64,000 nucleotides of DNA from Ostreococcus lucimarinus (Eukaryota), in NCBI GenBank assembly GCA_000092065.1, contig CP000584.1; one strand, written 5' to 3'. A program made the translations under genes and the position numbers. The stretch's first letter is position 1. The number at the start of each line of letters is the position of its first letter. The notes beneath the pieces are model-generated. The model was not told the origin of the DNA. It worked only from the letters and a program-made list of their open reading frames with translations, and ran no database searches. Below, piece after piece: positions 14,569 to 36,391 of the stretch.

Positions 14569-17142
14569 CTAGAGGACGAGCTTGACCCACGGCATGTCGC
14601 ACGCGTCGTTCTCGCAGTTCTCCACCAGCGCGAACGTGATGTCAGCCATGGGCACGGAGAGGGAAATTTGTTGTAAATTTCTGGCCGTCGAGGCGTCCGT
14701 CATGATGAGGTGCGTGGAACGTAAGCGAGAGGCGATGCGAACGCCGCTCCCAATCGGGGGCTCGGCGACGTTTACGCGCGGATCTTTGCACATCACCTTG
14801 AGCATTTGCATCACCGTGCCCATGTCCACGGTGGTCGTGCCGGTGCGTTGAAGCGCCTTAACCAACGCTATCAAGAACATGCGCTCGTAAAAGCTCGCAG
14901 CGTGAATGAGTTTCATGTGCGGACCGTCGAACATTTCGCTTTGCGCTTGGCGGACGTCGTCCATGGTTACTTTTTCGATGCGAGCCTTGGCGCGCGCTGC
15001 GGCGCCCTCTTCTGGTTGCGCGTTTTGCAAAGTGAGAGTAGTCACCTTTTCGACGTTAATTCTGGCTTCGGCGACTTCCGCCGCTCGCCGCGCGAGTTCG
15101 AGCGCTCGCCGCGCGTCGCCGTTCACCGAAGCAACTTTTCTGCAAATCAAGTCGAGGGTCGACGGCGCGTAGGCGTCGCTGCATCCCTCGACACTTTCCA
15201 GACGCGAGGTGACGATCTTCTTGAGCTGTTCCCAGGAATACGGAGCGAAAGCCGCGCGATTGCTTCCGAGTCGAGACGCGATGCGCGGGAGCATGCGTTC
15301 GGGTACGTCGAGCGTGTTGGCGATGCCGATGACGACGAGTCGACTCTTCTTGTGAGTCGGCCAATCGAAAATATTGTACAGCACGTCTTGCCTGTGCGTA
15401 ACGAGCAAATCAAGCTCGTCGACGATGAGAACTGTGACTCGTCCATCGCTTCCTTTGCCTTCCTTGAATCTCTTCTCCAAGACCATGCTCGCTTTGTCCG
15501 GGCTAAACTTTTGCCCCATCAACTCTTCGGCGATGGTGCTGTACGCGTGCTTGGGCGTTTGCAAACGGAGCGCGTTGAGCTCAACGTGGTTGAACTTTGG
15601 AATCACGCCGTTGCGCGCTTGCGAACGAAGGACCCGTATGATTTCGCGAACTGTCGCCGTCTTGCCCGTACCGGGGACGCCGGAAATGTACAGACATTTT
15701 CCCGTGCTGTGCGAACCCGCCATGATGGCTTCGTGCACGAAGTCGTAGACTTGCTTGCGTTCGTTTTCGCGACACGGCAGCGTCGCCGGCGTCGATGCCA
15801 GAGATAACACAGCGCGCACGCCGCCTAAAACAGTCGACGGGTGCTTCCTACCACGACTGAGAGCGCTGCCACCGAAACCAGCAATCTCCAAACGCGCCGC
15901 CGCGTCTTCCACACGCCGTCGAGCGGCGAGACGACCCGCGAGACGACTGTTGGCGCCCGACTTTTTGTCCTTCTTTTTCTTCGAGTCCCAGTCGTCGTCC
16001 TCTGCGTCGCGCCAGTCTAATTCATTCTCAAAGCGATCGTCGTCGCTGAATTCGTCCTCTTCGCCCCATTCGCCGCGACGCTTGAAGCGCTGAAACGCGG
16101 TGTCGTACGTGTATTCGCACACGTACGTGTCGTGCGATCCTTCCTCTTGATCTCGGAATTCTTGAGGCGTGCACACCTTGGCGACGCGAAATAAGCAATC
16201 GACGGGATTAACGTCGACGTTATGCGTCAAAAACACCTCGCGCCGATGCTGAATGGGTTGGCGTCCCATGTGCGTCTCCTCGGGCAGCGCGTACCATCGC
16301 GCCGCGAATTGGTACTCTCCGTTCTCTTCCCAAATGTGCTCTATACGCGCTAAATGGAACCTACCCGCCATGAACTCCGTGCACGCGGTGCGCGTCAACG
16401 TTTCGATTCGCGGCACCGCGCTCGCGGCCTCCCCGCCCCGCGCACACAACGGACAGTGCCAATCGCTCTCCGGCACGCGCGTCAGCGGCGGCTTGAGACA
16501 GCACATGTGCCACCCGCTCAGACACGTATCGCACTCGAGCATGATTCGATCCGCGTTCGGCGCTTCACCGCACACCATGCAAGGACAATCTTCGTCGTCA
16601 TCGAAATCGACCGTTTTCTCGTTCACCACGTACACGCTATCGCCCACGGCAAACTTTTCGCCTTCCAAATTCACGCACTTCCAATACTTGCGCTTCGGCG
16701 CCGCCGCCGCCGCGTTCAATTTTTTTCCCCTCCCCACCTTTTTCCCGTCCGACCCCCCCCCGACGTCGCTCGCGACGTCCCGCGCGTCGCGCGTCCTCGT
16801 CCTCTCCCCCTCGCTCGCTTTCGCCTTCGTCTTTTTCCCTCCTCTCCCCGACGCGTCCCTCGCCGCGTCGTCGTCTCGCGTCCGCGCCGCCTCCGTCTCC
16901 ATCTCCTTCCTCCCTCGCGCCATCTGCGCCAAAAACGCCGCGTTCGCCCGCTTCTTCTTCTTCTTCTTCTTCGCCTTCCCATCGTTCGCGTCCTCGTCGT
17001 CCCGTCCCGTCGTCGTCGTCGTCGTCGTCGTCTTTCGCTTCGTCGGTCGCGTCCCATCCTCGGTGGCGTACACCCGCGTCGCCATCGCGCGCGCGCGCGA
17101 CGTCGACGCGAGTCGCGATCGCAGTCGCGTCTGCCGCTCCAT
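14569..17142 (-). CDS. ORC1: origin recognition complex subunit 1 (plant type: BAH domain with embedded PHD finger, AAA+ ATPase, winged helix)
   Basis: BAH (KYWKCVNLEGEKFAVGDSVYV...) interrupted by a PHD (CPCMVCGE...CDTCLSGWHMCCL...HCPLC). Walker A GVPGTGKTAT, Walker B LIVDELD. Cdc6/Orc1 C-terminal winged helix. Confidence 0.85.
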   Translation of the reverse strand: MERQTRLRSRLASTSRARAMATRVYATEDGTRPTKRKTTTTTTTTGRDDEDANDGKAKKKKKKKRANAAFLAQMARGRKEMETEAARTRDDDAARDASGRGGKKTKAKASEGERTRTRDARDVASDVGGGSDGKKVGRGKKLNAAAAAPKRKYWKCVNLEGEKFAVGDSVYVVNEKTVDFDDDEDCPCMVCGEAPNADRIMLECDTCLSGWHMCCLKPPLTRVPESDWHCPLCARGGEAASAVPRIETLTRTACTEFMAGRFHLARIEHIWEENGEYQFAARWYALPEETHMGRQPIQHRREVFLTHNVDVNPVDCLFRVAKVCTPQEFRDQEEGSHDTYVCEYTYDTAFQRFKRRGEWGEEDEFSDDDRFENELDWRDAEDDDWDSKKKKDKKSGANSRLAGRLAARRRVEDAAARLEIAGFGGSALSRGRKHPSTVLGGVRAVLSLASTPATLPCRENERKQVYDFVHEAIMAGSHSTGKCLYISGVPGTGKTATVREIIRVLRSQARNGVIPKFNHVELNALRLQTPKHAYSTIAEELMGQKFSPDKASMVLEKRFKEGKGSDGRVTVLIVDELDLLVTHRQDVLYNIFDWPTHKKSRLVVIGIANTLDVPERMLPRIASRLGSNRAAFAPYSWEQLKKIVTSRLESVEGCSDAYAPSTLDLICRKVASVNGDARRALELARRAAEVAEARINVEKVTTLTLQNAQPEEGAAARAKARIEKVTMDDVRQAQSEMFDGPHMKLIHAASFYERMFLIALVKALQRTGTTTVDMGTVMQMLKVMCKDPRVNVAEPPIGSGVRIASRLRSTHLIMTDASTARNLQQISLSVPMADITFALVENCENDACDMPWVKLVL

Positions 17143-17192
17143 CTCGTCCGTCGTCCCTCGTCGCCGGCGTCGCGGTGTGAGCGCGCGTCGCG

Positions 17193-18974
17193 GTGTGCGC
17201 GCACCGCGATTCGAATCGATCGCGCGACAGCTCGAGTTTGAATTCGCGTTCGCGTCGTCGCGAGTGCGACGCGCGCGAGGGACGACGGATGCGCGTCTCG
17301 ACGTCGACGCGCGTCTCGATCGCGGTCGCGTCGACGCCGCGTCGCGCGCGTCGGCGACGACGCGCGAACGCGACGCGACGACGCGCGTTCGACGACGACG
17401 ACGACGACGACGACGGACTCGATGGACTCGTGCGACGGGCGTGCGCGCGAATCGGACGCGGCGACGAGGAAGCGAAAGAGATGACGGCGCGATTGCGGGC
17501 GAATTGGTTCGAGACGGCGGAGGACGTGCGAGGGATGGGGCCGGAGGACGCGCGCGCGGCGGGAATGCCGGCGAGGCTGTACGCGAGCGTGCGGGCGACG
17601 CTGGACGAGGACGAAGAAGACGACGTAGAGGCGAGAAATGGGGAAACGAAGCGCGAGGAGAGCGAAAGTGGGTGGATCGGGGGGGCGCTGCCGGGCGCGG
17701 GAACGCGCGCGCCGACGGTGACGCGAGAGGGAGGGACGGCGCTCGCCGACGTGCGCGTGACGCAACGGCGACGATTGAAACCGTTTTCTCTGCGCGGCGA
17801 AGAGGTGAGCGCGGAGTTGGAGGAAGAGTTGAATACGCTGGTGAGAGATTTGACGTCGAGACGCGTCGGTGGTGGGCGCGCGCCCGTGCGAGAGCGCACG
17901 GCGATGAATCACGTCGCCGTGGCGAAGCAATTCATGGGATGGTTGTGCCGAGAGTCAGAGCACGCGAGCGAGTTTGCGACTCTGAGCGTCGATGGACGCG
18001 TGGTGTTGCGTCCGGGCGTGTCGTTGCGCGACGCGTTTCCGAAGCGCGAATCCGTAGGCGCGAAGTACGCGATAGAATACGTTCAGTGGCTCAGCGACGA
18101 GCGTCGCATCAAATCGACGACGGAGGATTTTCAGCTGCGAAGTCTCGTCGCCTTGGCGAAGTGGGTGCACGCGTTCGTCGAAGACGACGGTATAGCGCCG
18201 CCGTGCGTGCAAGAGCTCGTTCGAGTGCAGCGATCGGCGCGCGATCGCGCGAAAAACGCCCCACACGCCGCGGACGACGACCGAAAATGGCTCGAATGGG
18301 ATCAGTACTTGGCGCTCGTCGAGCATCTCAAACTCGAGTGCGCGCCGCTGGATTGCAACGGCAAAGAGCGCTCTGAGCGCGAAATCGCGATGAGCGTGCA
18401 GCGCTATTTATTGTTCGCCATCTTGGCGTGCATTCCCGATCGCCAGCGAACGTTGCGCGAGCTGCAGTTGAACAAGACGCTCTTTCGCGACGCCTCCACC
18501 GGCGCGTGGATGGTGCGTCACGGCAGCGACGATTACAAAACGGGCGGCGCCTACGGCGAGCGACCCGCGCTCGTGATCGATTCTCGCGTCTATCCAGCGC
18601 TCGAGAGTTGGCTCTCCACCCACCGAGCCGCGTTATCGCCGTCCCACGACTTTGTTTTCACCCGCCCCAACGGCACGCCCTGGACGGTGAGCGAATTGTC
18701 GCGAACGTTTTCCCGCGCCGCCCTTCGCGTCACCGGCCAAAAGACCAATCCCCACTTGATTCGCGACATGATCGTCACCCACGTCCGCTCTCGCGGCATC
18801 GCCAGCGACGCCGAGCTCGAGGCCTTGGCTCGTTTCATGGGTCACTCCAGCGCCATGCAAAAGTCCACCTACGACCGCCGCACGACGCAAGAAAAAGTCA
18901 ACCCGGCGTTGTCGTTGATGGCCAACGTCAACGCCGCCGCGCCGCCGTCGCGACCGGCGTCCGCGCCGTCCTAG
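17193..18974 (+). CDS. tyrosine recombinase (phage-integrase/Crypton-like: SAM-like core-binding domain + catalytic domain), single host-like gene
   Basis: Catalytic residues in order: R (ACIPDRQRTLRELQL), K (DYKTGGAYGERPALVI), HxxR (NPHLIRDMIV), H (FMGHSS), Y (QKSTYDRR). SAM-like N-terminal domain (MNHVAVAKQFMGWL..IEYVQWL..LAKWVHAF). The start is likely ATG 17481, because the first 96 codons are low-complexity antisense to the ORC1 5' end. Confidence 0.7.
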   Translation: MCAHRDSNRSRDSSSLNSRSRRRECDAREGRRMRVSTSTRVSIAVASTPRRARRRRRANATRRRAFDDDDDDDDGLDGLVRRACARIGRGDEEAKEMTARLRANWFETAEDVRGMGPEDARAAGMPARLYASVRATLDEDEEDDVEARNGETKREESESGWIGGALPGAGTRAPTVTREGGTALADVRVTQRRRLKPFSLRGEEVSAELEEELNTLVRDLTSRRVGGGRAPVRERTAMNHVAVAKQFMGWLCRESEHASEFATLSVDGRVVLRPGVSLRDAFPKRESVGAKYAIEYVQWLSDERRIKSTTEDFQLRSLVALAKWVHAFVEDDGIAPPCVQELVRVQRSARDRAKNAPHAADDDRKWLEWDQYLALVEHLKLECAPLDCNGKERSEREIAMSVQRYLLFAILACIPDRQRTLRELQLNKTLFRDASTGAWMVRHGSDDYKTGGAYGERPALVIDSRVYPALESWLSTHRAALSPSHDFVFTRPNGTPWTVSELSRTFSRAALRVTGQKTNPHLIRDMIVTHVRSRGIASDAELEALARFMGHSSAMQKSTYDRRTTQEKVNPALSLMANVNAAAPPSRPASAPS

Positions 18975-19372: not shown

Positions 19373-20503
19373 ATGGCGCCGAACGACGGCGAACGAACGG
19401 CGTTCGCGCTGAAGATCGCGCGAGGGCGCGTCGTGGAGGTGACGAAGACGAACGGGGAGACGATCGAGGGGGTGTTCGCGGAGACGACGAAGAACGGCGG
19501 CGAGGCGACGATCAAGTACGGATGGACGAAACGCGAGGCGGGGGCGAAAGAGCGGGCGCAGAGGAGCAAACCGATGGAAACGATGGCGATCGCGATGGAT
19601 GAGATCGCGAGCATCACGGCGAGAGACGTGGGGATGAGCGATTTGGCGGTGGGGCCGAGTCGAATGAACGACGACTTCACCGACGGCGGCATCTCGAGAG
19701 GGGCGACGGGACAGGATCGCGAACTCGTCGCGTGGGCGCCGGAAGAGGGCGATGGAGCGAGTGGGATGACGCTCGAGGAAGAGGCTGGGATCGGGGCGAA
19801 GAAGGCGGCGGCGGCGGCGTGGGGGAAGAAATCCGGCGGACAGTGGGACCAATTCTCCGCCAATAAGCAACTCTTCGGCGTCGACACCAAGTTTGACGAA
19901 TCCTTGTACACGACGACGATCGATAAGGCCAAGGGAGGGATCTCCGAAGCCGAGGCCGCGCGCATCGCGTACGAGATTCAGAATCAAATCTCGGACAACC
20001 CGCACGTCGCGGAGGAACGTGGCCAAAAGGCGCTCGCGGATTACGACGAAGAGGAACGATACTCCTCGGTGTTGCCCACGCCGAAAGGCGCGGCGCCGCC
20101 GACGCCGGCGTGGGGCTCGGGCAAGGTGCCGAGCACCGTCGCGCAGCACGCGGAAAAGAAGCCCGCGGGTGAGAAGGCGAAGGACGTCGCCCAGCCCGCG
20201 GACGCGTCCAAGTCCAAGCTCAACGCCGACGCCAAGTCTTTCTCTCTCAGCGCCAAGGCGGCCGAGTTCGTGCCGACGTTCAAAAAGCCAGCCGCGCCGC
20301 AAGTGCCGCCCACGGGACCGCAAATGATGATGTACCCGGGTATCCCGCAAATGCAAGGCCAAATGATGTACATGCCGCAAATGGGCATGGGCGTTCCGCC
20401 GCAAATGCGAGGCATGATGCCGGGTATGCCGTACATGCCGCAACAAGGCATGGGCGTCCCGCACGGTGCGCCTCCCACACGACCACCCGAGGGTGAGAAC
20501 TGA
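19373..20503 (+). CDS. ataxin-2/Pbp1-like protein (Lsm + LsmAD + PAM2 motif), CID-type
   Basis: Sm-like N-terminus (RTAFALKIARGRVVEVTKTNGETIEGVF). LsmAD (KKSGGQWDQFSANKQLFGVDTKFDESLYTT). PAM2 (SKLNADAKSFSLSAKAAEFVPTF). M/P/Q-rich tail. The real start is ATG 19373 inside ORF 18428..20503. Confidence 0.75.
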   Translation: MAPNDGERTAFALKIARGRVVEVTKTNGETIEGVFAETTKNGGEATIKYGWTKREAGAKERAQRSKPMETMAIAMDEIASITARDVGMSDLAVGPSRMNDDFTDGGISRGATGQDRELVAWAPEEGDGASGMTLEEEAGIGAKKAAAAAWGKKSGGQWDQFSANKQLFGVDTKFDESLYTTTIDKAKGGISEAEAARIAYEIQNQISDNPHVAEERGQKALADYDEEERYSSVLPTPKGAAPPTPAWGSGKVPSTVAQHAEKKPAGEKAKDVAQPADASKSKLNADAKSFSLSAKAAEFVPTFKKPAAPQVPPTGPQMMMYPGIPQMQGQMMYMPQMGMGVPPQMRGMMPGMPYMPQQGMGVPHGAPPTRPPEGEN

Positions 20504-20775: not shown

Positions 20776-21897
20776 ATGCGCGTCGCGCGCGCCTTCGTCG
20801 TCGCTTTCGCGCGCGCGCGCCCGCGAGTGACGCGCGCCGCGCGTCCGAGCGCGCCCGCGACGAAACCGCGCGTCTGCGCCCCCCTCTGCGCGTCCGCCGA
20901 CGACCGCGCGCTGCACAGCCTCGACGGCTGCGACGACGCCAGCGACGCGCCGTACGTCGTCGTCAAGCGCGTCGACGCCCACGACGTCGGCGCGCTCGGT
21001 GATGTGTTACTTTCTCTCGGTGCCTCGTCCGTGTCGACGATCGACGCCGACGCGGGGACGGAGGACGAGCACGAAATCTTCAGCGCCAACACGTTCGAGG
21101 AGCAGGCGAGCGACAAGACGAAGGCGCGCGTTTGGGCGAAGTGCCACGTGACGGCGTACTTTGAAGATCACGCGCGAGCGCGCGCGGGAATCGAGGCGGC
21201 GGAAGAAATTTTGGGGATTTCGTTGGAAGCGTCGTACGCGGAGTCGAAATCAAACGATTGGGTGCAGGCGGTGAAGGATAGCTTTACGCCGACGAAAATC
21301 GCGGACGGGCTGTACATCGTGCCGGATTGGTGTAAAGACGTCGATGCGAACGCTGTGAACATCGCGCTGGAGCCGGGCATCGCGTTCGGTACCGGTGAAC
21401 ATCCGACGACGCGGTTGTGCCTGCGCTGGCTGAAACAGACTTTGGCGAGGCGAGGGAAGACCGAGCTCGTGGTCGATTTCGGATGCGGCTCGGGCGTACT
21501 CGCGATCGGAGCGCTCGTCATGGGGGCCGACCGCGCGGTGGGCGTGGATTTGGCGAAACAAGCCGTGCAGAGTTCTATCGACAACGCCAAGTTGAATGGT
21601 GTGGAGGATCGCTTGACGACGTATCTTGGCGACGGACGCGATCCCGGAACTCCGGGCGCGAACGGGCAGGCGGACGTCGTCGTCGCGAATATTTTAATCG
21701 GCCCCGTGCTCGAGTTGGAGCCACTCTTCGCGGGGTACTGTAAAGTCGGTGGCGAAATCGCGTTGAGTGGGATTTTATACGGTGAGCAGAGCGCATCTGT
21801 CGTGGCAAAGTACGCGCGTCATTTCGACAATATTTGCGTCGTCGAGGAAGGTGGGTGGGCGTGCGTGCACGGCGTACGAAACGGAACGCCAGTCTGA
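20776..21897 (+). CDS. prmA: ribosomal protein L11 methyltransferase (PrmA), organellar-type with presequence
   Basis: PrmA signature GTGEHPTTRLCLRWL. SAM motif VVDFGCGSGVLAIGAL, then VANILIGPVLELEPLF. R/A-rich N-terminal presequence. ORF opens at 20599; ATG 20776 is the preferred start. Confidence 0.75.
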   Translation: MRVARAFVVAFARARPRVTRAARPSAPATKPRVCAPLCASADDRALHSLDGCDDASDAPYVVVKRVDAHDVGALGDVLLSLGASSVSTIDADAGTEDEHEIFSANTFEEQASDKTKARVWAKCHVTAYFEDHARARAGIEAAEEILGISLEASYAESKSNDWVQAVKDSFTPTKIADGLYIVPDWCKDVDANAVNIALEPGIAFGTGEHPTTRLCLRWLKQTLARRGKTELVVDFGCGSGVLAIGALVMGADRAVGVDLAKQAVQSSIDNAKLNGVEDRLTTYLGDGRDPGTPGANGQADVVVANILIGPVLELEPLFAGYCKVGGEIALSGILYGEQSASVVAKYARHFDNICVVEEGGWACVHGVRNGTPV

Positions 21898-31729: not shown

Positions 31730-34700
31730 ATGAAGATGAACCGCTTTTCCGTTGCCCACGCGTCAGAATTCTGCATTCAGCGACTCGCGCGGCGAGCACG
31801 CCGCGCTCGAAACGCCGCCAAGTTGTCGCAGGAGAACAACGATGTGTGCGCGCGCGACGAATCCACCGTCGCGCGCGACGAAGCGCGCCAAGGCCTGCTG
31901 TCGCTCGCGCGCGTCGCGAGTCGACGCGTCGATCGCTCGTTACGACGCATGCGCGCGTCAATCAGTCGTAGACGCTCCAACAAAGGAACGGATGGCGAAG
32001 CGTGCTTAGTTTTACACGGATGGCGAAGCAACGCCGACGTGAGCGCGCTGCATGCGCGAAGGTTGCGGCTTTTGAAGCGATTTAGAAAGGCGTCGTGCGT
32101 GAATGGCTCGGAGGAGGCGCCGCACGCGGCGGACGAGACGACGTCTGAATTAATCGATGGACCGTGGTTCTCCTGGGTCGACGACGCGAGTGATGATACG
32201 TTTGAAAATTTGGAAAGCGAGCGAGCGACGGCGTTAATGACGGCGGCGCGATCGGTGGCAAAGTTTGCCATCGAACACGGGCCGTTCAAGTGCGCGGTGG
32301 GATTTTCGCAAGGCGGCGCAATGATCACGTTGTTGTCCAACCCGCAGGTCTTAAGCATGCTGGGGATCGAAGGGGGCTATTTGTGGGACAGTGCGGTGAT
32401 TTGTTGCGGCGCGTCATCTTCATTGCTCGATCTCGCGGCGACGAAGTGGGGTATCGACGTGCGCTCGTCGGCGTCGCCGATGCCGTCGTTGCACGTGTTC
32501 GGTTTTCAAGACAAATTCAAACCACAAGGTGAAGTGCTCATGAATACGTTCCGTGCGTACGACAGCGAGGACCAATTGATCAGACACGCTCTGTATTTAG
32601 ACTGCGGTCACACGTTGCCGGCGTCGCTCGAGACGGACACTGGTTTTCACGCCGAATTCGACGCCTGGCTCGAGGCGGCGACCGAGGCGGCTCCCCGTCG
32701 TTACAGGTCAAACGAGTTCGATGAAGATGTTTTGTTCGACGACATCAAGTCGCTAGAGTATAAGTCGCTCAAGTTTAGTAATCAGCCCACCATCGAGCGC
32801 GCTGAGGCTGATATTGAGAGAGCAGAAGCGGAGGGCGCACGCGCCGCCCAAGCGACGACATTTGCTTCAGCCAGAACTCTCGCCCGAAACATCGATGTAA
32901 GCACCGCAACTGCGCCGAGCGGGAATGATCTCACGTTCAACACGCGCTGTGCGAGTTTGGTTCAGTGTAATGTGTCGCTAAAGTCAAGCAGAGTGAATAT
33001 TCTTGACTTTCTAGCGAGGGCGCCTCGAGCGTCTCCGCTTCTTCGAAGCTTGGACGGGGCAACATTGACGTACGGGCAAGCGATCGACTTCATAACAAAA
33101 GGGGACGGTGATTTACGTAAACTTGGGGCAGATTCGTCATCTGTTTTTGCGTATAATGTCCCTCCAGGCCCGGTCGGTGCGCTAGCTTTTCTCGCCGTCG
33201 CGTCGCAGTGCACCGCCGTCCCTTTGGACCCCGGCATCGCCGAGGAAGACGCCTACGAAGCCCTGACGTCGTGTCGAGTGTCAATGCTTGCGTTATTTCG
33301 AGGAACCGACACTGAAGCAATTGAAACGGCAGCTTCTCGAGCTCATATACCGATTAAATGGTTCGTGATGACGGAAGCTGATACTAAACTTGCCGGTTTG
33401 TACGCGCCGGAATCGTCTCAATCGTCAACGAGTGACGTCGCGCCGCTCGTACAATCGAGTGAAACGATCGGTCTTTTGCTTCGAACTTCTGGGACGACAT
33501 CCAAGTCAAAAGTTGTTCCGTTGGTTATCGGCGCGTTGACTTCAAACGGCGCTACGCTGGCGGCTTCTCTTGAACTCAAAGCTTCAGACGTTTGCATCAA
33601 CGCCATGCCTCTTTTTCACATCGGTGGCCTTTCGTGTTCCATCTTGGCGACGATCGCGGCGCACTCTTCTGTCATCTGCTGTCGTAAGTTTGACGCTCAA
33701 TCGTTTTATGACACCATTACGACGTCGCATGAAGTCAAACCGACGTGGTACTCAGCAATACCGACGATTCATTTGACAGTACTGCAATACGGTCAAGCTG
33801 TGGCTCGTGGCGCAAAGCCATCGCATGCTCTTCGTTTCATACGCTCTGGCGCGGCGGCGCTCAGCCATGCCGACGCAGAAAAGTTGCAACGATTTTGGGA
33901 CGTGCCGATAATACCGACGTATAGTATGAGTGAACAAATGCCGATCACTGGTAAAGGTGTCCACGTTCCGCTCGCCGAGCGTGCGGATACCGTGGGCCAG
34001 CCTCTCTGTTGTTCGTTTGCGCTCGTCGGTGATGGTCATTGCAGACTCACGGCACCTTTTGGACAGCAAGGTGAACTCGTCATCAGCGGTGATAACGTGA
34101 TGACGGCGTATCAAGATGCGGAAGAAGCTAACAATAAGACTTACTTCTACGTTGCCGATAAGCGTTACCTTCGCACTGGCGACATCGCAAAGATGGACCA
34201 CGATGGGTTTGTGTACTTGACTGGTCGTAGTAAGGAACTTATCAAGCGCGGGGGTGAGCAAGTGAGCCCATTAAAAGTCGAGGCTGTGCTCGTGCAGCAT
34301 CCATACGTGCGTGTTGCGGTAGTCTTCAGCGTTCCTTCGGCGCTTTGGGGAGAAGAAGTGGGCGCCGCGATCGTATTGACCGACGACTTTGATGGGCACG
34401 AAGACTCGGCGCTCTCTTCAATCAAGTCTTTCATGGGAACATCGAAAGAACTATCTCGATTTGAAATTCCTGTACACTGGAAATTTGTCGCTGACGAAGA
34501 TTTACCCAAAACATCGACGAAAAAGTATAAGCGTGCGGGTTTGGCCGAGATTTTAAACGTCGCGAAGAAAGTCGACGCGTGCACTTTGCGGCACTCTAAA
34601 AAGGTGACGACCCCGTCGCATGGTCTTGCAGGCTTGCGCTATTGTATGGCTGTAGGTGTGATGTTTAACCACATAGGTGCCATTTGGCAAGGCGAGGACG

Positions 34701-36391
34701 AACGTGATCCTTTGACGTATGGTCCAGCGTGGATGTCTGCCAAGGCGACGACGTTTTACTTTCCAGCGACAACTTTCTTTGTGCTGGGTGGCTTCACGCT
34801 CAGCGCCGCACTGAACGGCAAGGAAATCACAAAAGGAACATGGGGATCGTTCTATAATTCAAGGTTTCAAACACTCTTTCCTCTGTACTTGCTGTCTTTG
34901 TTTCTCGGTCTGATCAACGTCCTCGTGGTGTGTCGCCCGGAAACTTTTAGTAGCGAATTTAGCTGGCAACCACATAACGCAACGCTCACGCTCGACTCTG
35001 GGGCGTGGGCGCAATGCCAGACCGGTCCAGTGGAGATGCCCTACGGCGCTTGGCTCTTCATGACCCTCATCGTTTTCTCTTTCGGGTTGCAAACTTGGTT
35101 CCCGCTGTGGCTTCTCAGCTCGTGGTTCATGTACTACACGTGGTTCAACGGCGTTTACTATTTCATTATTCTCGTGTTTCCTTTCATGCACAACGCGCTC
35201 GCTCGCGTCAAAGGCGAATTCAAAGCCGTACTGAGATGGTTCATCGTTTACTGTGTCGGTACTCTTATCACCGCCGGGCTTTTGGGATTGTACTACGCCT
35301 TACCGGCGTGGGAAGAGCACGACGATGTCGCCAAAGTGAAGAGCTGGAAAGAAAATGTGCAGAACATCTACGCACTCAGCACAATGATGTTTCCGCCGTA
35401 TTGGGTGCCATGTGTCGGTACGGGTATGGCCGCATACTTTTGGTACGACGCCGTACGGCCAGTAGAGTCGCACAAGCGCGCGTTGTACGGCCACTGCGCC
35501 GATGTGCTCACGCTCGCATTTTTCGCCTTCCATCTCGCCCATTTCCTTGACATTGATTGGCCTTATCCGACCAACGTCACGGGCAAGATGTGGGAAGTTG
35601 TACCCGAAGAGCATCATCGCTGGGATACAGGCATCAATCGCTATGTATGGAGCGTCATGATCACTCGGTTGTATTCTCCGTTGATCGCCGTCTGGATCGC
35701 TCTGCTGTCGATACCGAAGGGCAGCCGAACGACTCGCCTTCTTGAATCAAACTTACTAAGCAAAGTGCTCGCCCCGACGAGTTATGGTTGCTTCTTGTTC
35801 CACCAGATCATTGGACAGTGGTATTGGTGGGCGACTCGTAATGGAAATGGCATCAAGACCGCAGACGTTGGCGACAAGACGTCGTGGATGTGGTGGGCGT
35901 ATCCGAAGGAATATTACTGGTTCTCGCCGCAGCCGTTACCTGTGGCGTGGTACGAGTTCTTCTTCATCGTCGGAATGACGACGTGCTTTTCGGCGGCGGT
36001 AGACAGGTGGCTCAATACTCCACTGACGGTGCTATGGATCAAGTTTATAACCTTCTTCCGGAATATTATATGGCCGAATTCGGCGAAGAGCGCGGAGACT
36101 TCGGGTAGCAGCGAGGAGTCGTCGCCTGAAGACGCGGTGATCAAAGCAGTCGCCGCGGTCACGGGCGTCGACGAACGAGTGTCTCTCGACGACTCCTTTG
36201 ATGAGATCGGTCTCGTTTCTGTCGGTCTGCCAGTGCTCGTGGGTATAATCAACGCCGGCGAACAATTCGCCGTCATCTCGGCTCAAGAAATAGCGACGTG
36301 CGCGAACCTTCGTGACGTCGTCAGAATAATCGCTTCCAAGCGTGAATCGGCTCGATCGAGTGTAGGGTTTGGAACTAGAAGCTCTCTGTAA
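31730..36391 (+). CDS. multidomain FSH1-type serine hydrolase + adenylation (AMP-binding) domain + family-3 membrane acyltransferase + phosphopantetheine carrier domain
   Basis: Hydrolase: LVLHGW..., GFSQGGA (GxSxG), ...DCGHTLP. A-domain: LLRTSGTTSKSKVVPL (A3), YLRTGD (A8), LTGRSKELIKRGGEQVSPLKVE, LPKTSTKKYKR (A10 Lys). AT3: GLRYCMAVGVMFNH.., FFVLGGFTLS, FYNSRFQTLFPLY, about 10 TM helices. Carrier: VSLDDSFDEIGLVSVG (Ser attachment site). TGTAA overlaps the TAA stop (36387-36391). Start may be ATG 31949. Confidence 0.75.
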   Translation: MKMNRFSVAHASEFCIQRLARRARRARNAAKLSQENNDVCARDESTVARDEARQGLLSLARVASRRVDRSLRRMRASISRRRSNKGTDGEACLVLHGWRSNADVSALHARRLRLLKRFRKASCVNGSEEAPHAADETTSELIDGPWFSWVDDASDDTFENLESERATALMTAARSVAKFAIEHGPFKCAVGFSQGGAMITLLSNPQVLSMLGIEGGYLWDSAVICCGASSSLLDLAATKWGIDVRSSASPMPSLHVFGFQDKFKPQGEVLMNTFRAYDSEDQLIRHALYLDCGHTLPASLETDTGFHAEFDAWLEAATEAAPRRYRSNEFDEDVLFDDIKSLEYKSLKFSNQPTIERAEADIERAEAEGARAAQATTFASARTLARNIDVSTATAPSGNDLTFNTRCASLVQCNVSLKSSRVNILDFLARAPRASPLLRSLDGATLTYGQAIDFITKGDGDLRKLGADSSSVFAYNVPPGPVGALAFLAVASQCTAVPLDPGIAEEDAYEALTSCRVSMLALFRGTDTEAIETAASRAHIPIKWFVMTEADTKLAGLYAPESSQSSTSDVAPLVQSSETIGLLLRTSGTTSKSKVVPLVIGALTSNGATLAASLELKASDVCINAMPLFHIGGLSCSILATIAAHSSVICCRKFDAQSFYDTITTSHEVKPTWYSAIPTIHLTVLQYGQAVARGAKPSHALRFIRSGAAALSHADAEKLQRFWDVPIIPTYSMSEQMPITGKGVHVPLAERADTVGQPLCCSFALVGDGHCRLTAPFGQQGELVISGDNVMTAYQDAEEANNKTYFYVADKRYLRTGDIAKMDHDGFVYLTGRSKELIKRGGEQVSPLKVEAVLVQHPYVRVAVVFSVPSALWGEEVGAAIVLTDDFDGHEDSALSSIKSFMGTSKELSRFEIPVHWKFVADEDLPKTSTKKYKRAGLAEILNVAKKVDACTLRHSKKVTTPSHGLAGLRYCMAVGVMFNHIGAIWQGEDERDPLTYGPAWMSAKATTFYFPATTFFVLGGFTLSAALNGKEITKGTWGSFYNSRFQTLFPLYLLSLFLGLINVLVVCRPETFSSEFSWQPHNATLTLDSGAWAQCQTGPVEMPYGAWLFMTLIVFSFGLQTWFPLWLLSSWFMYYTWFNGVYYFIILVFPFMHNALARVKGEFKAVLRWFIVYCVGTLITAGLLGLYYALPAWEEHDDVAKVKSWKENVQNIYALSTMMFPPYWVPCVGTGMAAYFWYDAVRPVESHKRALYGHCADVLTLAFFAFHLAHFLDIDWPYPTNVTGKMWEVVPEEHHRWDTGINRYVWSVMITRLYSPLIAVWIALLSIPKGSRTTRLLESNLLSKVLAPTSYGCFLFHQIIGQWYWWATRNGNGIKTADVGDKTSWMWWAYPKEYYWFSPQPLPVAWYEFFFIVGMTTCFSAAVDRWLNTPLTVLWIKFITFFRNIIWPNSAKSAETSGSSEESSPEDAVIKAVAAVTGVDERVSLDDSFDEIGLVSVGLPVLVGIINAGEQFAVISAQEIATCANLRDVVRIIASKRESARSSVGFGTRSSL

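Follow-up and report, generated by a model that had tools for sequence, protein, structure and literature searches.

A conserved nuclear tyrosine recombinase gene of apparent cyanobacterial ancestry, possibly plastid-targeted, in Ostreococcus lucimarinus

Tyrosine recombinases (YRs) against which the gene described here can be compared include the Xer proteins (XerA, XerH, XerC/XerD) and Cre, the TyrC proteins of algal organelles, and the eukaryotic Cryptons together with the DUF3504 genes. TyrC of Heterosigma akashiwo and of diatom plastids and plasmids was proposed to convert multimers of chloroplast DNA to monomers in a Xer-like manner (PMC2410131). By its description, TyrC is encoded in the organelle, is about 300 amino acids (aa) long, occurs sporadically, and is regarded as laterally acquired. 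Cryptons code for a YR only, without reverse transcriptase (RT) or RNase H; they are mobile, have a patchy distribution, and carry short terminal direct repeats. Crypton-derived genes provide a precedent for co-option of a YR by its host (PMC3212892), and in the DUF3504 genes the catalytic tetrad is no longer present.

The gene examined here lies in a window of 64,000 nucleotides from Ostreococcus lucimarinus (the whole stretch of DNA that was analysed; GC roughly 0.6). Its product shares the fold of the Xer proteins and Cre, but is twice as long, is encoded in the nucleus, bears a sterile-alpha-motif (SAM) domain and a presequence-like extension, and has an enlarged beta2-beta3 loop that carries an invariant Lys. 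Scored against the NCBIfam equivalog models, it reached 25.4 bits for XerC (cut-off 335.15) and 19.5 bits for XerA (cut-off 220), and on these scores it is not a Xer orthologue. As with TyrC, a link to algal organelle DNA is proposed below; in contrast to TyrC as described, the family of the window YR is nuclear, about 560-700 aa long, widespread, and conserved. It resembles the Cryptons and DUF3504 genes in being eukaryotic and in coding for a YR without RT or RNase H, and differs from them in its fixed locus, intact tetrad, and apparent cyanobacterial ancestry. An earlier, sequence-only reading of this DNA was aware of no such gene described in a Mamiellophyceae-like alga, which agrees with the literature searched; the same search returned no nuclear gene with a described role in rearranging chloroplast DNA. 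We know of no nuclear-encoded site-specific recombinase assigned to plastids, and the literature searched contained none. One nuclear-encoded Holliday-junction resolvase of chloroplasts, MOC1, has been described.

The open reading frame (ORF) at 17193..18974 on the + strand encodes 593 aa and opens with a GTG codon under translation table 11. Since the gene is eukaryotic and the upstream GTG is a table 11 call, the first ATG, at 17289, is probably the true start, which would give a protein of 561 aa; P0001, a relative with 99% identity, has a length of 560 aa. The features of the locus, in positions of the window, are as follows.

14569..17142, - strand: ORC1, with BAH, PHD, AAA+, and Cdc6 winged-helix domains; left anchor of the syntenic block
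17143..17288, no strand: divergent spacer of 146 bp between ORC1 and the YR gene; presumed bidirectional promoter
17289..18974, + strand: YR gene in one exon, coding for 561 aa and ending in a stop
17289..17390, + strand: 34-aa N-terminal extension (MRVSTSTRVSIAVASTPRRARRRRRANATRRRAF) with 12 Arg and no acidic residues, shown as disordered by the AF2 model
17391..17414, + strand: poly-Asp-encoding (GAC)8 tract
17418..17648, + strand: SAM-fold domain, aa 44-120 (LDGLVRRACARIGRG...LRANWFETAEDV...GMPARL)
17745..18338, + strand: conserved VRVTxR motif, then helical core-binding (Phage_int_SAM-like) domain, aa 153-350
18339..18938, + strand: catalytic domain, aa 351-550
18435-18470, + strand: Arg box PDRQRTLRELQL
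18531-18566, + strand: Lys loop DYKTGGAYGERP
18747-18782, + strand: HxxR box NPHLIRDMIVTH
18837-18881, + strand: H...Y box MGHSSAMQKSTYDRR
19373..20503, + strand: ataxin-2-like gene, with SM-ATX, LsmAD, and PAM2; right anchor of the syntenic block
20776..21897, + strand: PrmA-type ribosomal protein L11 methyltransferase; additional syntenic anchor

The domain matches of the neighbouring genes bear out their earlier naming as ORC1 and an ataxin-2-like gene. The distance of 340 bp that had been given for the head-to-head arrangement with ORC1 was counted to an internal ATG at 17484 and is replaced by the 146 bp measured from the first ATG; a start at 17484 would cut into a conserved N-terminal domain. 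An S-phase promoter common to the YR gene and ORC1 was considered and dropped: the 146-bp spacer showed no E2F consensus, nor did the spacers of the orthologues, although 36 instances of the strict motif were counted across the window.

A complete YR fold had been proposed from the sequence, with a SAM-like core-binding domain upstream of a catalytic domain in which the Arg, Lys, HxxR, His, and Tyr motifs follow one another. All of these motifs are present and were mapped to the coordinates above. In Foldseek comparisons of the AF2 model of the window protein (pLDDT 77.9), some 380 columns could be aligned with Cre, XerA, XerH, and lambda Int (E about 3e-6), and the alignments to Cre and XerA cover both the core-binding and the catalytic domain. 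The Pfam profile PF00589 matched the C-terminal half only of the window protein (E=7e-6, 26.3-26.4 bits), below the gathering threshold of 27.1; it matched 33 of 69 family members at E<=0.01 and gave 40.1 bits for the cyanobacterial homologues. The Phage_int_SAM_4 profile matched 3 of the 69 members, and a profile match to the N-domain of XerD was weak. A sequence search of the PDB with the single window protein returned nothing meaningful, and a family profile was required. Despite the weak PF00589 score of the single protein, its identity as a YR is accepted because of the family profile matches, the fold recovered by Foldseek, and the conserved residues. In the 561-aa numbering, R385, K417, R492, and Y528 are invariant across the 69 diverse members, which include distant relatives with identities as low as 24-40%, and H489 and H519 are nearly invariant (at least 90% conserved). 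In the family profile, the PHxxR motif aligns with H244/R247 of XerD. Box I holds three conserved Arg residues (R385, R387, and R390) and K417 lies in the enlarged loop; the catalytic Arg and Lys are named as candidates. The window protein is a complete YR and, apparently, a catalytically competent one.

The YR gene has a long history of vertical inheritance as a single-copy nuclear gene in Mamiellales, and its behaviour is that of a host gene, not of an active transposon. As the sequence-only reading had described, it stands alone between ORC1 and ataxin-2 with neither RT nor RNase H beside it, and the RT, RNase H, or terminal repeats of DIRS, Ngaro, and VIPER elements were not found at the locus. 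No terminal or flanking repeats were detected, only CG-rich low-complexity repeats around the gene, and it is present in one copy, with no paralogue found within the 64,000-nt window. Its codon usage is that of the host (RSCU r=0.91 versus the rest of the window; 0.80-0.93 for the other genes). Orthologues are 99, 97, 77, 67, and 49% identical to the window YR. The synteny that had been suggested as a check holds: the block of ORC1, YR, ataxin-2, PrmA, and TPR genes is kept in two congeners (L001 and L002), and the same block occurs on chromosome OZ116855.1 of Bathycoccus prasinos (L010). A second stable context, in which the YR gene adjoins a DNMT5-like gene, was found in two GC-rich relatives (51% and 47% identity), both of which are probably Mamiellaceae. 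The Bathycoccus YR is 48.7% identical to that of the window and so better conserved than ORC1 (42%) or PrmA (37%). Purifying selection is evident from an overall dN/dS of 0.19-0.22, similar to that of ORC1, PrmA, and ataxin-2; the ratio is 0.07-0.14 in the catalytic domain and 0.13-0.17 in the core-binding domain, and the N-terminal 34 aa are the fastest-evolving part of the gene (0.45-0.83). One near-identical contig (L007) was left out, as its dN/dS of 0.70 arises from very few changes; its fragmented gene calls suggest long-read indels. MMETSP transcripts were found for one orthologue, and homologues elsewhere contain introns, with at least six exon blocks in Acanthamoeba and about 16 exons in Chlamydomonas (C. 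incerta).

The eukaryotic family spans green algae, a large diatom-type clade, and Acanthamoeba; a profile search gave 2,448 hits. Prokaryotic relatives were identified at nine loci among 185,579 prokaryotic genomes, and all nine are cyanobacterial (L014-L022, from Nostoc, Microcoleus, Kamptonema, Stenomitos, Leptolyngbyaceae, and Xenococcus; GC 0.35-0.49). The window protein matches the Nostoc homologue with 36% identity over 446 aa (BLASTP, E=4e-74), and the cyanobacterial proteins as a set are true homologues, 33-36% identical to it along some 420-446 aa. With 530-630 aa they are about as long as it is, and they share the VRVT motif, the core-binding and catalytic domains, and the C-terminal YDRRT..QKV.PA tail, but have another N-terminal domain and neither a SAM domain nor a presequence; in the eukaryotic members, a SAM domain precedes the recombinase. 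The cyanobacterial genes are located in mobile or defence islands, at the border of variable cargo, near genes for Prim-Pol, a D5-like helicase, AAA_25, CHAT, a pPIWI-RE nuclease, and a CI repressor; about 100 bp downstream of the gene, homology breaks off. These neighbours and the position at the edge of the cargo suggest that the cyanobacterial relatives act as mobile-element integrases. In a distance-based neighbour-joining (NJ) tree built on a MAFFT --auto alignment, 100 of 100 bootstraps united the eukaryotic sequences in one clan, and the deep branches within that clan are weakly supported (13-31%). On this evidence, the eukaryotic family descends from one acquisition of a cyanobacterial-type integrase. 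A viral origin was considered and rejected, since IMG/VR contigs held no relatives and BFVD yielded only generic phage integrases with about 14% identity.

The N-termini of the family differ by lineage. Signal-peptide-like h-regions are present in 30 of 53 full-length diatom-side members, and in 21 of these 30 the h-region is followed by an [AGSC]/[FW] site (for example, GASA/FAPV, or SIDA/FICH in a T. oceanica transcript), compared with 5.2 +/- 2.1 expected under the composition-based null of this redesigned, crude scan; a first version of the scan gave 8 sites against 5.3 +/- 1.5, which is not significant. A signal peptide followed by an ASAFAP-like Phe agrees with what is required for import into diatom plastids (PMC4329603). 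None of the 48 green-side members and none of the 9 cyanobacterial-type ones has this motif; the green-side N-termini are acid-poor and rich in Arg, Ala, Ser, and Thr, and the cyanobacterial ones are acidic. Many of the metagenomic N-termini depend on gene calling of the prokaryotic kind and may be misplaced. The acid-free, Arg/Ser/Thr/Ala-rich 34-aa extension of the window protein resembles a presequence (transit peptide), and could equally be read as a mitochondrial presequence or a nuclear localization signal (NLS). The Acanthamoeba protein has an acidic N-terminus and no presequence, and the Seminavis protein has a signal peptide with Cys at +1.

With moderate confidence, we read the window YR as a site-specific recombinase that descends from cyanobacteria, is encoded in the nucleus, and is targeted to the plastid. 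The suggestion of a domesticated recombinase survives insofar as this is a host gene. The N-terminal signals, which look appropriate to each lineage, would point to an organelle-imported enzyme and not to a nuclear domesticated transposase. On the plastid-targeted reading, the cyanobacterial N-terminal domain would have been swapped for a SAM domain in eukaryotes and a targeting sequence gained. The precursor would enter the plastid, have its presequence cut off, and bind a putative inverted-repeat core site in plastid DNA. A tetrameric synapse, possibly aided by the SAM domain, would then carry out strand exchange via 3'-phosphotyrosyl and Holliday-junction intermediates. SAM domains typically mediate oligomerisation. 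The likeliest job for such an enzyme would be to resolve multimers of the plastid genome, or else to carry out some defined inversion or excision. Several observations speak against this reading: the plastid-less Acanthamoeba retains an intact, intron-containing copy without a presequence; the cyanobacterial relatives resemble mobile-element integrases and not chromosome-maintenance enzymes, nor does the YR belong among Xer orthologues; and in Seminavis the +1 residue is not Phe.

A broader version of the plastid-targeted reading, which we offer tentatively and think rather less likely, is that the family constitutes the plastid's own site-specific recombination system, captured a single time from a mobile element of cyanobacteria, with later loss in land plants. 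The captured, SAM-bearing YR would be imported into green and red-derived plastids alike and act at a putative dif/lox-like site, as a functional analogue of Xer that is evolutionarily independent of it. The upkeep of multicopy circular plastid genomes as units that can be segregated is only partly understood, and a family with intact catalytic residues, conservation across green algae and diatoms, cyanobacterial ancestry, and what look like plastid-type presequences makes that question testable. Ostreococcus tauri and Phaeodactylum tricornutum, which may carry the gene, are genetically tractable models. If the plastid-targeted reading is true, a prokaryotic mobile-element integrase became a core eukaryotic gene and retained its chemistry, which animal Crypton-derived genes lost, and a native recombinase with its target site could become available for plastid engineering.

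Co-option for a nuclear function, the sense in which the gene had first been called domesticated, is in our estimate unlikely. Here, the Arg-rich N-terminus would be an NLS, as the NLS-like RRARRRRR cluster allows; the enzyme would perform a programmed rearrangement or some other DNA transaction on nuclear chromosomes, and the SAM domain would link it to chromatin partners. SAM domains are indeed common in eukaryotic nuclear and signalling proteins, the intact Acanthamoeba gene has introns and no presequence, and the YR gene has replication-linked neighbours in both contexts, namely ORC1 in the window and Bathycoccus and the DNMT5-like gene in the other Mamiellales group. These points are weighed against the ER signal peptides with an ASAFAP-like Phe, which are incompatible with nuclear import and argue against it in the diatom-side members, and against cyanobacterial descent in a family whose hosts nearly all bear plastids. 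The rapid change of the N-terminal 34 aa is, moreover, the kind expected of a transit peptide.

A mitochondrial or dually targeted recombinase appears improbable. The mitochondrial genome of Mamiellales is circular with large inverted repeats and would be the substrate. Green-side N-termini such as MARRLLSSV... and MIYRFLIASAFRH... are as similar to amphipathic mitochondrial presequences as to transit peptides, and a role in mitochondria could explain why Acanthamoeba kept the gene, but the N-terminus in that organism is acidic and lacks a presequence, the ancestry is cyanobacterial and not alphaproteobacterial, and the bipartite signals of the diatom side are specific to plastids (PMC4329603). 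Retention of the gene for non-catalytic DNA binding or scaffolding, as for the animal DUF3504 genes, is very improbable, given that those genes lost the tetrad (PMC3212892) that the window YR retains and that the 69 members, down to 24-40% identity, show little or no variation at any catalytic position.

Insertion beside ORC1 of a lone Crypton, or of some other YR transposon that is or recently was active, is already contradicted and has next to no likelihood. Cryptons do go without terminal inverted repeats and may occur in few copies (PMC3212892), and 'YR cryptons' are listed for Mamiellales by automated transposable-element surveys (bioRxiv 10.1101/2025.04.21.649811). Against this, three species of the genus and Bathycoccus all have the gene in one place, between ORC1 and ataxin-2, at saturated dS, purifying selection is strong, codon usage is host-like, neither a second copy nor terminal direct repeats were found in the window, the eukaryotic sequences form one clan, the closest relatives are cyanobacterial, IMG/VR and BFVD offered no nearer kin than a generic integrase fold, and profile searches with DUF3504, DUF3435, and GCR1_C matched 0 of 69 family members. 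The Crypton framing of the sequence-only reading, in its solo-insertion and its domesticated-transposon form alike, is therefore abandoned, and the gene should no longer be scored as 'Crypton' in transposable-element annotations of Mamiellales.

Two entries bear on the range of hosts of the family. The EukProt entry labelled 'Pelagococcus subviridis' (P0048) is 59% identical to Mamiellaceae-type proteins and is not counted for the pelagophytes, since contamination or a gene of green derivation may lie behind it. The Acanthamoeba-related P0198 group is not a second plastid-less host but another compact prasinophyte-like genome.

The open reading frame that the sequence-only reading placed at 17193-18974 (+) is present and, read with the bacterial code from a GTG, encodes 593 aa; its first ATG, at 17289, gives a eukaryotic start and a 561-aa protein, in agreement with a 560-aa relative that is 99% identical. 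The neighbours of this tyrosine-recombinase gene (YR) were correctly named as ORC1 and an ataxin-2-like gene, but the 340 bp given as the distance to ORC1 matches an internal ATG (17484), a start that would cut into a conserved domain, and the divergent spacer between the two ATGs is 146 bp. The genes and the domains of YR (561-aa numbering) are as follows.

ATG at 17142, minus strand: ORC1, with BAH, PHD, AAA+ and Cdc6 winged-helix domains
17289-18974, plus strand: YR
YR aa 1-34: disordered N-terminal extension with 12 Arg and zero acidic residues, followed by a poly-Asp tract
YR about aa 153-350: core-binding domain
YR about aa 351-550: catalytic domain
19373-20503, plus strand: ataxin-2-like gene downstream of YR, with SM-ATX, LsmAD and PAM2
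20776-21897, plus strand: bacterial-type PrmA (ribosomal protein L11 methyltransferase), in the same syntenic block in congeners and Bathycoccus
31730-36391, plus strand: NRPS-like gene (AMP-ligase/acyl-carrier/esterase), 1,553 aa
40371-41624, minus strand: CCCH zinc-finger gene

A perfect 26-nt inverted repeat (17007-17032 and 17391-17416), in which (CGT)n faces (GAC)n, brackets the divergent spacer and derives from the ORC1 poly-Thr and YR poly-Asp tracts. The ORC1 protein is 47% identical to that of Micromonas commoda, 49% to that of M. pusilla and 79–87% to those of several congeners.

Recombinase identity, as proposed from the sequence, was settled by several lines of evidence, among them conservation of the catalytic residues in 69 family members and a profile alignment with XerD. 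Across these members, with identities down to 24–40%, R385, K417, R492 and Y528 are invariant and H489 and H519 are conserved at 90% or more, while the PHLLRDMIVTH segment of the family profile aligns with H244-x-x-R247 of XerD. Three arginines are conserved in box I (PDRQRTLRE) and the invariant lysine lies within an unusually long beta2-beta3 loop, so the catalytic Arg and Lys are not pinned to exact residues. The Pfam model PF00589 matched the C-terminal half only, at E=7e-6 and with 26.3 bits where the threshold is 27.1, and a search of PDB sequences with the single YR sequence returned no match. YR is not an orthologue of Xer, scoring 25 bits where the cut-off is 335.

YR is not a transposon, and the suggested solo Crypton insertion was not borne out: tblastn finds no second copy in the 64-kb window, the surrounding repeats are only CG-rich low-complexity matches and (GAC)n/(CGT)n codon repeats, synteny is conserved and selection is purifying. 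'YR cryptons' are included among the transposable-element classes of Mamiellales in a preprint (bioRxiv 10.1101/2025.04.21.649811), and we consider a Crypton extremely improbable here, as none of the 69 members matches DUF3504, DUF3435 or GCR1_C, by which Crypton-derived and Starship recombinases are recognised. Host-like codon usage was confirmed (RSCU r=0.91 against the rest of the window, with 0.80-0.93 for other genes; GC3 of 0.78). No relatives were found in IMG/VR viral contigs, matches in BFVD were to generic phage integrases only, and MMETSP holds transcripts of an orthologue.

Homologues of YR are graded in identity (99, 97, about 75, about 67, about 51, about 47 and about 44%). The order ORC1-YR-ataxin-2 is kept in two congener contigs, those with the 75% and 68% relatives, where it runs APE2-like, ORC1(-), YR(+), ataxin-2(+), PrmA(+) and TPR(-) as in the window, and in Bathycoccus prasinos, in which YR has ORC1 on one side and the LsmAD/ataxin-2, PrmA and TPR genes on the other (OZ116855.1; the cluster of the 44% relative includes B. 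prasinos CAL6434664.1). In a second, GC-rich Mamiellales group of two diverged lineages (51% and 47% identity), YR is directly downstream of a DNMT5-like gene encoding a 2,400-aa C5-DNA-methylase-SNF2 fusion (L003 362-7615, L012 230-7438). YR thus adjoins a replication-linked gene, either ORC1 or a DNMT5-like maintenance methylase, in both Mamiellales lineages, which may be coincidence. Within the genus, dN/dS (Nei-Gojobori) was calculated by region and for the neighbours; as dS is near or past saturation, the values are upper bounds.

Within-genus dN/dS, upper bounds
YR, whole gene: 0.19-0.22
YR, catalytic domain: 0.07-0.14
YR, core-binding domain: 0.13-0.17
YR, sterile-alpha-motif (SAM) domain: about 0.4
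YR, first 42 codons: 0.45-0.83
ORC1: 0.10-0.15
PrmA: 0.20-0.26
ataxin-2: 0.13-0.23

Between the window and Bathycoccus, YR (48.7% identity; catalytic domain 67%) is better conserved than ORC1 (42%) or PrmA (37%).

When 1.84 billion representative proteins were searched with a profile, 2,448 matches had E<=1e-3, and 390 had E<=1e-30. Automated labels read 'integrase' in IMG and 'Tyr recombinase domain-containing protein' in UniRef. Named members come from Acanthamoeba castellanii (ACA1_144080), Seminavis robusta, Thalassiosira oceanica (THAOC_34649), Monoraphidium minutum, Chlamydomonas incerta (HXX76_013167) and Bathycoccus prasinos. In C. incerta the gene spans 7.2 kb in about 16 exons, and that of Acanthamoeba, with a coding sequence in at least six exon blocks, neighbours eIF2D, vitamin-K-carboxylase-like and dehydrogenase genes; both are resident host genes. 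The Acanthamoeba gene (KB007840.1, L008 8001-11086) is intact, with introns and a SAM domain and with no N-terminal extension, and was probably acquired by transfer from a green alga; since this host is plastid-less, its function there cannot be plastidial. The only 'pelagophyte' member, P0048 (EukProt Pelagococcus subviridis), is 59% identical to Mamiellaceae-type proteins and far nearer to them than any diatom-side member, pointing to prasinophyte transcriptome contamination or a green-derived gene. A compact prasinophyte-like genome, P0198 (L023-L025), encodes a divergent YR in a third context (adh_short, YR, Hpt), has a PXA-PX/Arf gene pair in common with L003, and in the tree is loosely grouped with that of Acanthamoeba.

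Prokaryotic relatives were confined to nine loci, all cyanobacterial, among 185,579 species scanned with one genome each (Nostoc, two Microcoleus, Kamptonema, two Stenomitos, a Leptolyngbyaceae, Xenococcus and an uncultured cyanobacterium). Their GC content (0.35-0.49) is in the cyanobacterial range, so they are no algal contamination. YR is 36% identical to the 571-aa Nostoc protein over 446 residues (E=4e-74), from a VRVT motif to the C-terminal YDRRT..QKV.PA tail. The cyanobacterial proteins have a different N-terminal domain and neither a SAM domain nor a basic extension. Their neighbours include Prim-Pol, DUF3854/D5_N/DUF5906 primase-helicase, AAA_25, CHAT, LRR, pPIWI-RE nuclease, Fic, dynamin-like GTPases and CI/XRE repressors, and homology between the two Microcoleus loci (L015, L017) breaks off (at about 6365 and about 6411) roughly 100 bp downstream of the integrase gene, with differing cargo beyond (Prim-Pol versus D5-like primase-helicase), so that these members look like integrases of an island or episome. 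A candidate attachment or recombination site is a 63-bp segment that L015 2347-2409 and L017 6434-6496 share at 86% identity; in one genome it comes right after the break, in the other about 4 kb upstream.

In a neighbour-joining tree (463 well-occupied columns, 86 sequences, 100 bootstraps, no outgroup), all 61 eukaryotic sequences formed one clan against the 25 cyanobacterial-type sequences (100/100). The Mamiellales clade (100/100) and a large diatom-type clade with T. oceanica and Seminavis (98/100) were recovered, and deeper green-side branching, including the placement of Acanthamoeba, had support of just 13-31%. The eukaryotic family thus has a single origin with cyanobacterial affinity, and this outgroup-less distance tree fits primary endosymbiotic and later transfer alike.

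Diatom plastid import uses an ER signal peptide with Phe (or Trp, Tyr, Leu) after the cleavage site, the 'ASAFAP' motif, followed by a hydroxyl-rich, acid-poor transit peptide (PMC4329603). A first version of our home-made signal scan gave no significance. In the later scan, in which many metagenomic protein starts are uncertain, a signal-peptide-like hydrophobic segment was found in 30 of 53 apparently full-length diatom-side members, directly followed in 21 of these by [AGSC]/[FW], where the slash marks the motif boundary (expected 5.2 +/- 2.1, maximum 12 in 2,000 trials, under a null of each protein's own mature composition). Examples are GASA/FAPV, SSSA/FLLL, GCAS/FSVV and, in a T. oceanica transcript, SIDA/FICH; several missed cases were spotted by eye (e.g. 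ASA/FQP, DG/FAPS, IAS/FSP), and the Seminavis protein has a signal peptide with Cys at +1. The motif is in none of 48 green-side members, most of which carry an Arg/Ala/Ser/Thr-rich extension almost without acidic residues, like green-algal transit peptides; the nine cyanobacterial-type proteins have ordinary acidic N-termini. The N-terminal extension of PrmA (MRVARAFVVAFARARPRV...) is similar in style to that of YR.

From these sequence comparisons, we are confident that YR, of cyanobacterial ancestry and with a predicted working active site, is a conserved gene of the host, and the most economical reading is a predicted plastid-imported site-specific recombinase. On this account, a plastid-bearing ancestor would have acquired a cyanobacterial-type integrase in its nuclear genome a single time; the original N-terminal domain of the integrase would then have been lost, a SAM domain and a targeting peptide added, and the gene since kept under strong constraint with its active site intact. 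Plastid targeting in Ostreococcus lucimarinus itself is somewhat favoured. The leading, still tentative, candidate role is resolution of plastid-genome multimers, to which single-recombinase Xer systems and the action of Cre on the P1 plasmid offer analogies; TyrC of Heterosigma, for which this role has been proposed as well (PMC2410131), looks unrelated and, unlike nuclear YR, is plastid-encoded. A nuclear role appears unlikely, mitochondrial or dual targeting less likely still, and a non-catalytic role, given the invariant residues, highly improbable. A partial full-text literature search, hence no proof of novelty, turned up neither an account of this family nor one of any plastid tyrosine recombinase encoded in the nucleus.

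Window GC is roughly 0.6 overall, swinging from about 0.53 to 0.72 between successive kilobases in the first 28 kb; much of 28-37 kb and 50-61 kb shows a flatter course at lower values (0.50-0.59). The 90% clusters of the NRPS-like and CCCH proteins have members filed in NCBI as '[bacterium]' (MDA9599241.1, MDA9599245.1), which suggests that contigs of this alga were mis-binned into a bacterial MAG.
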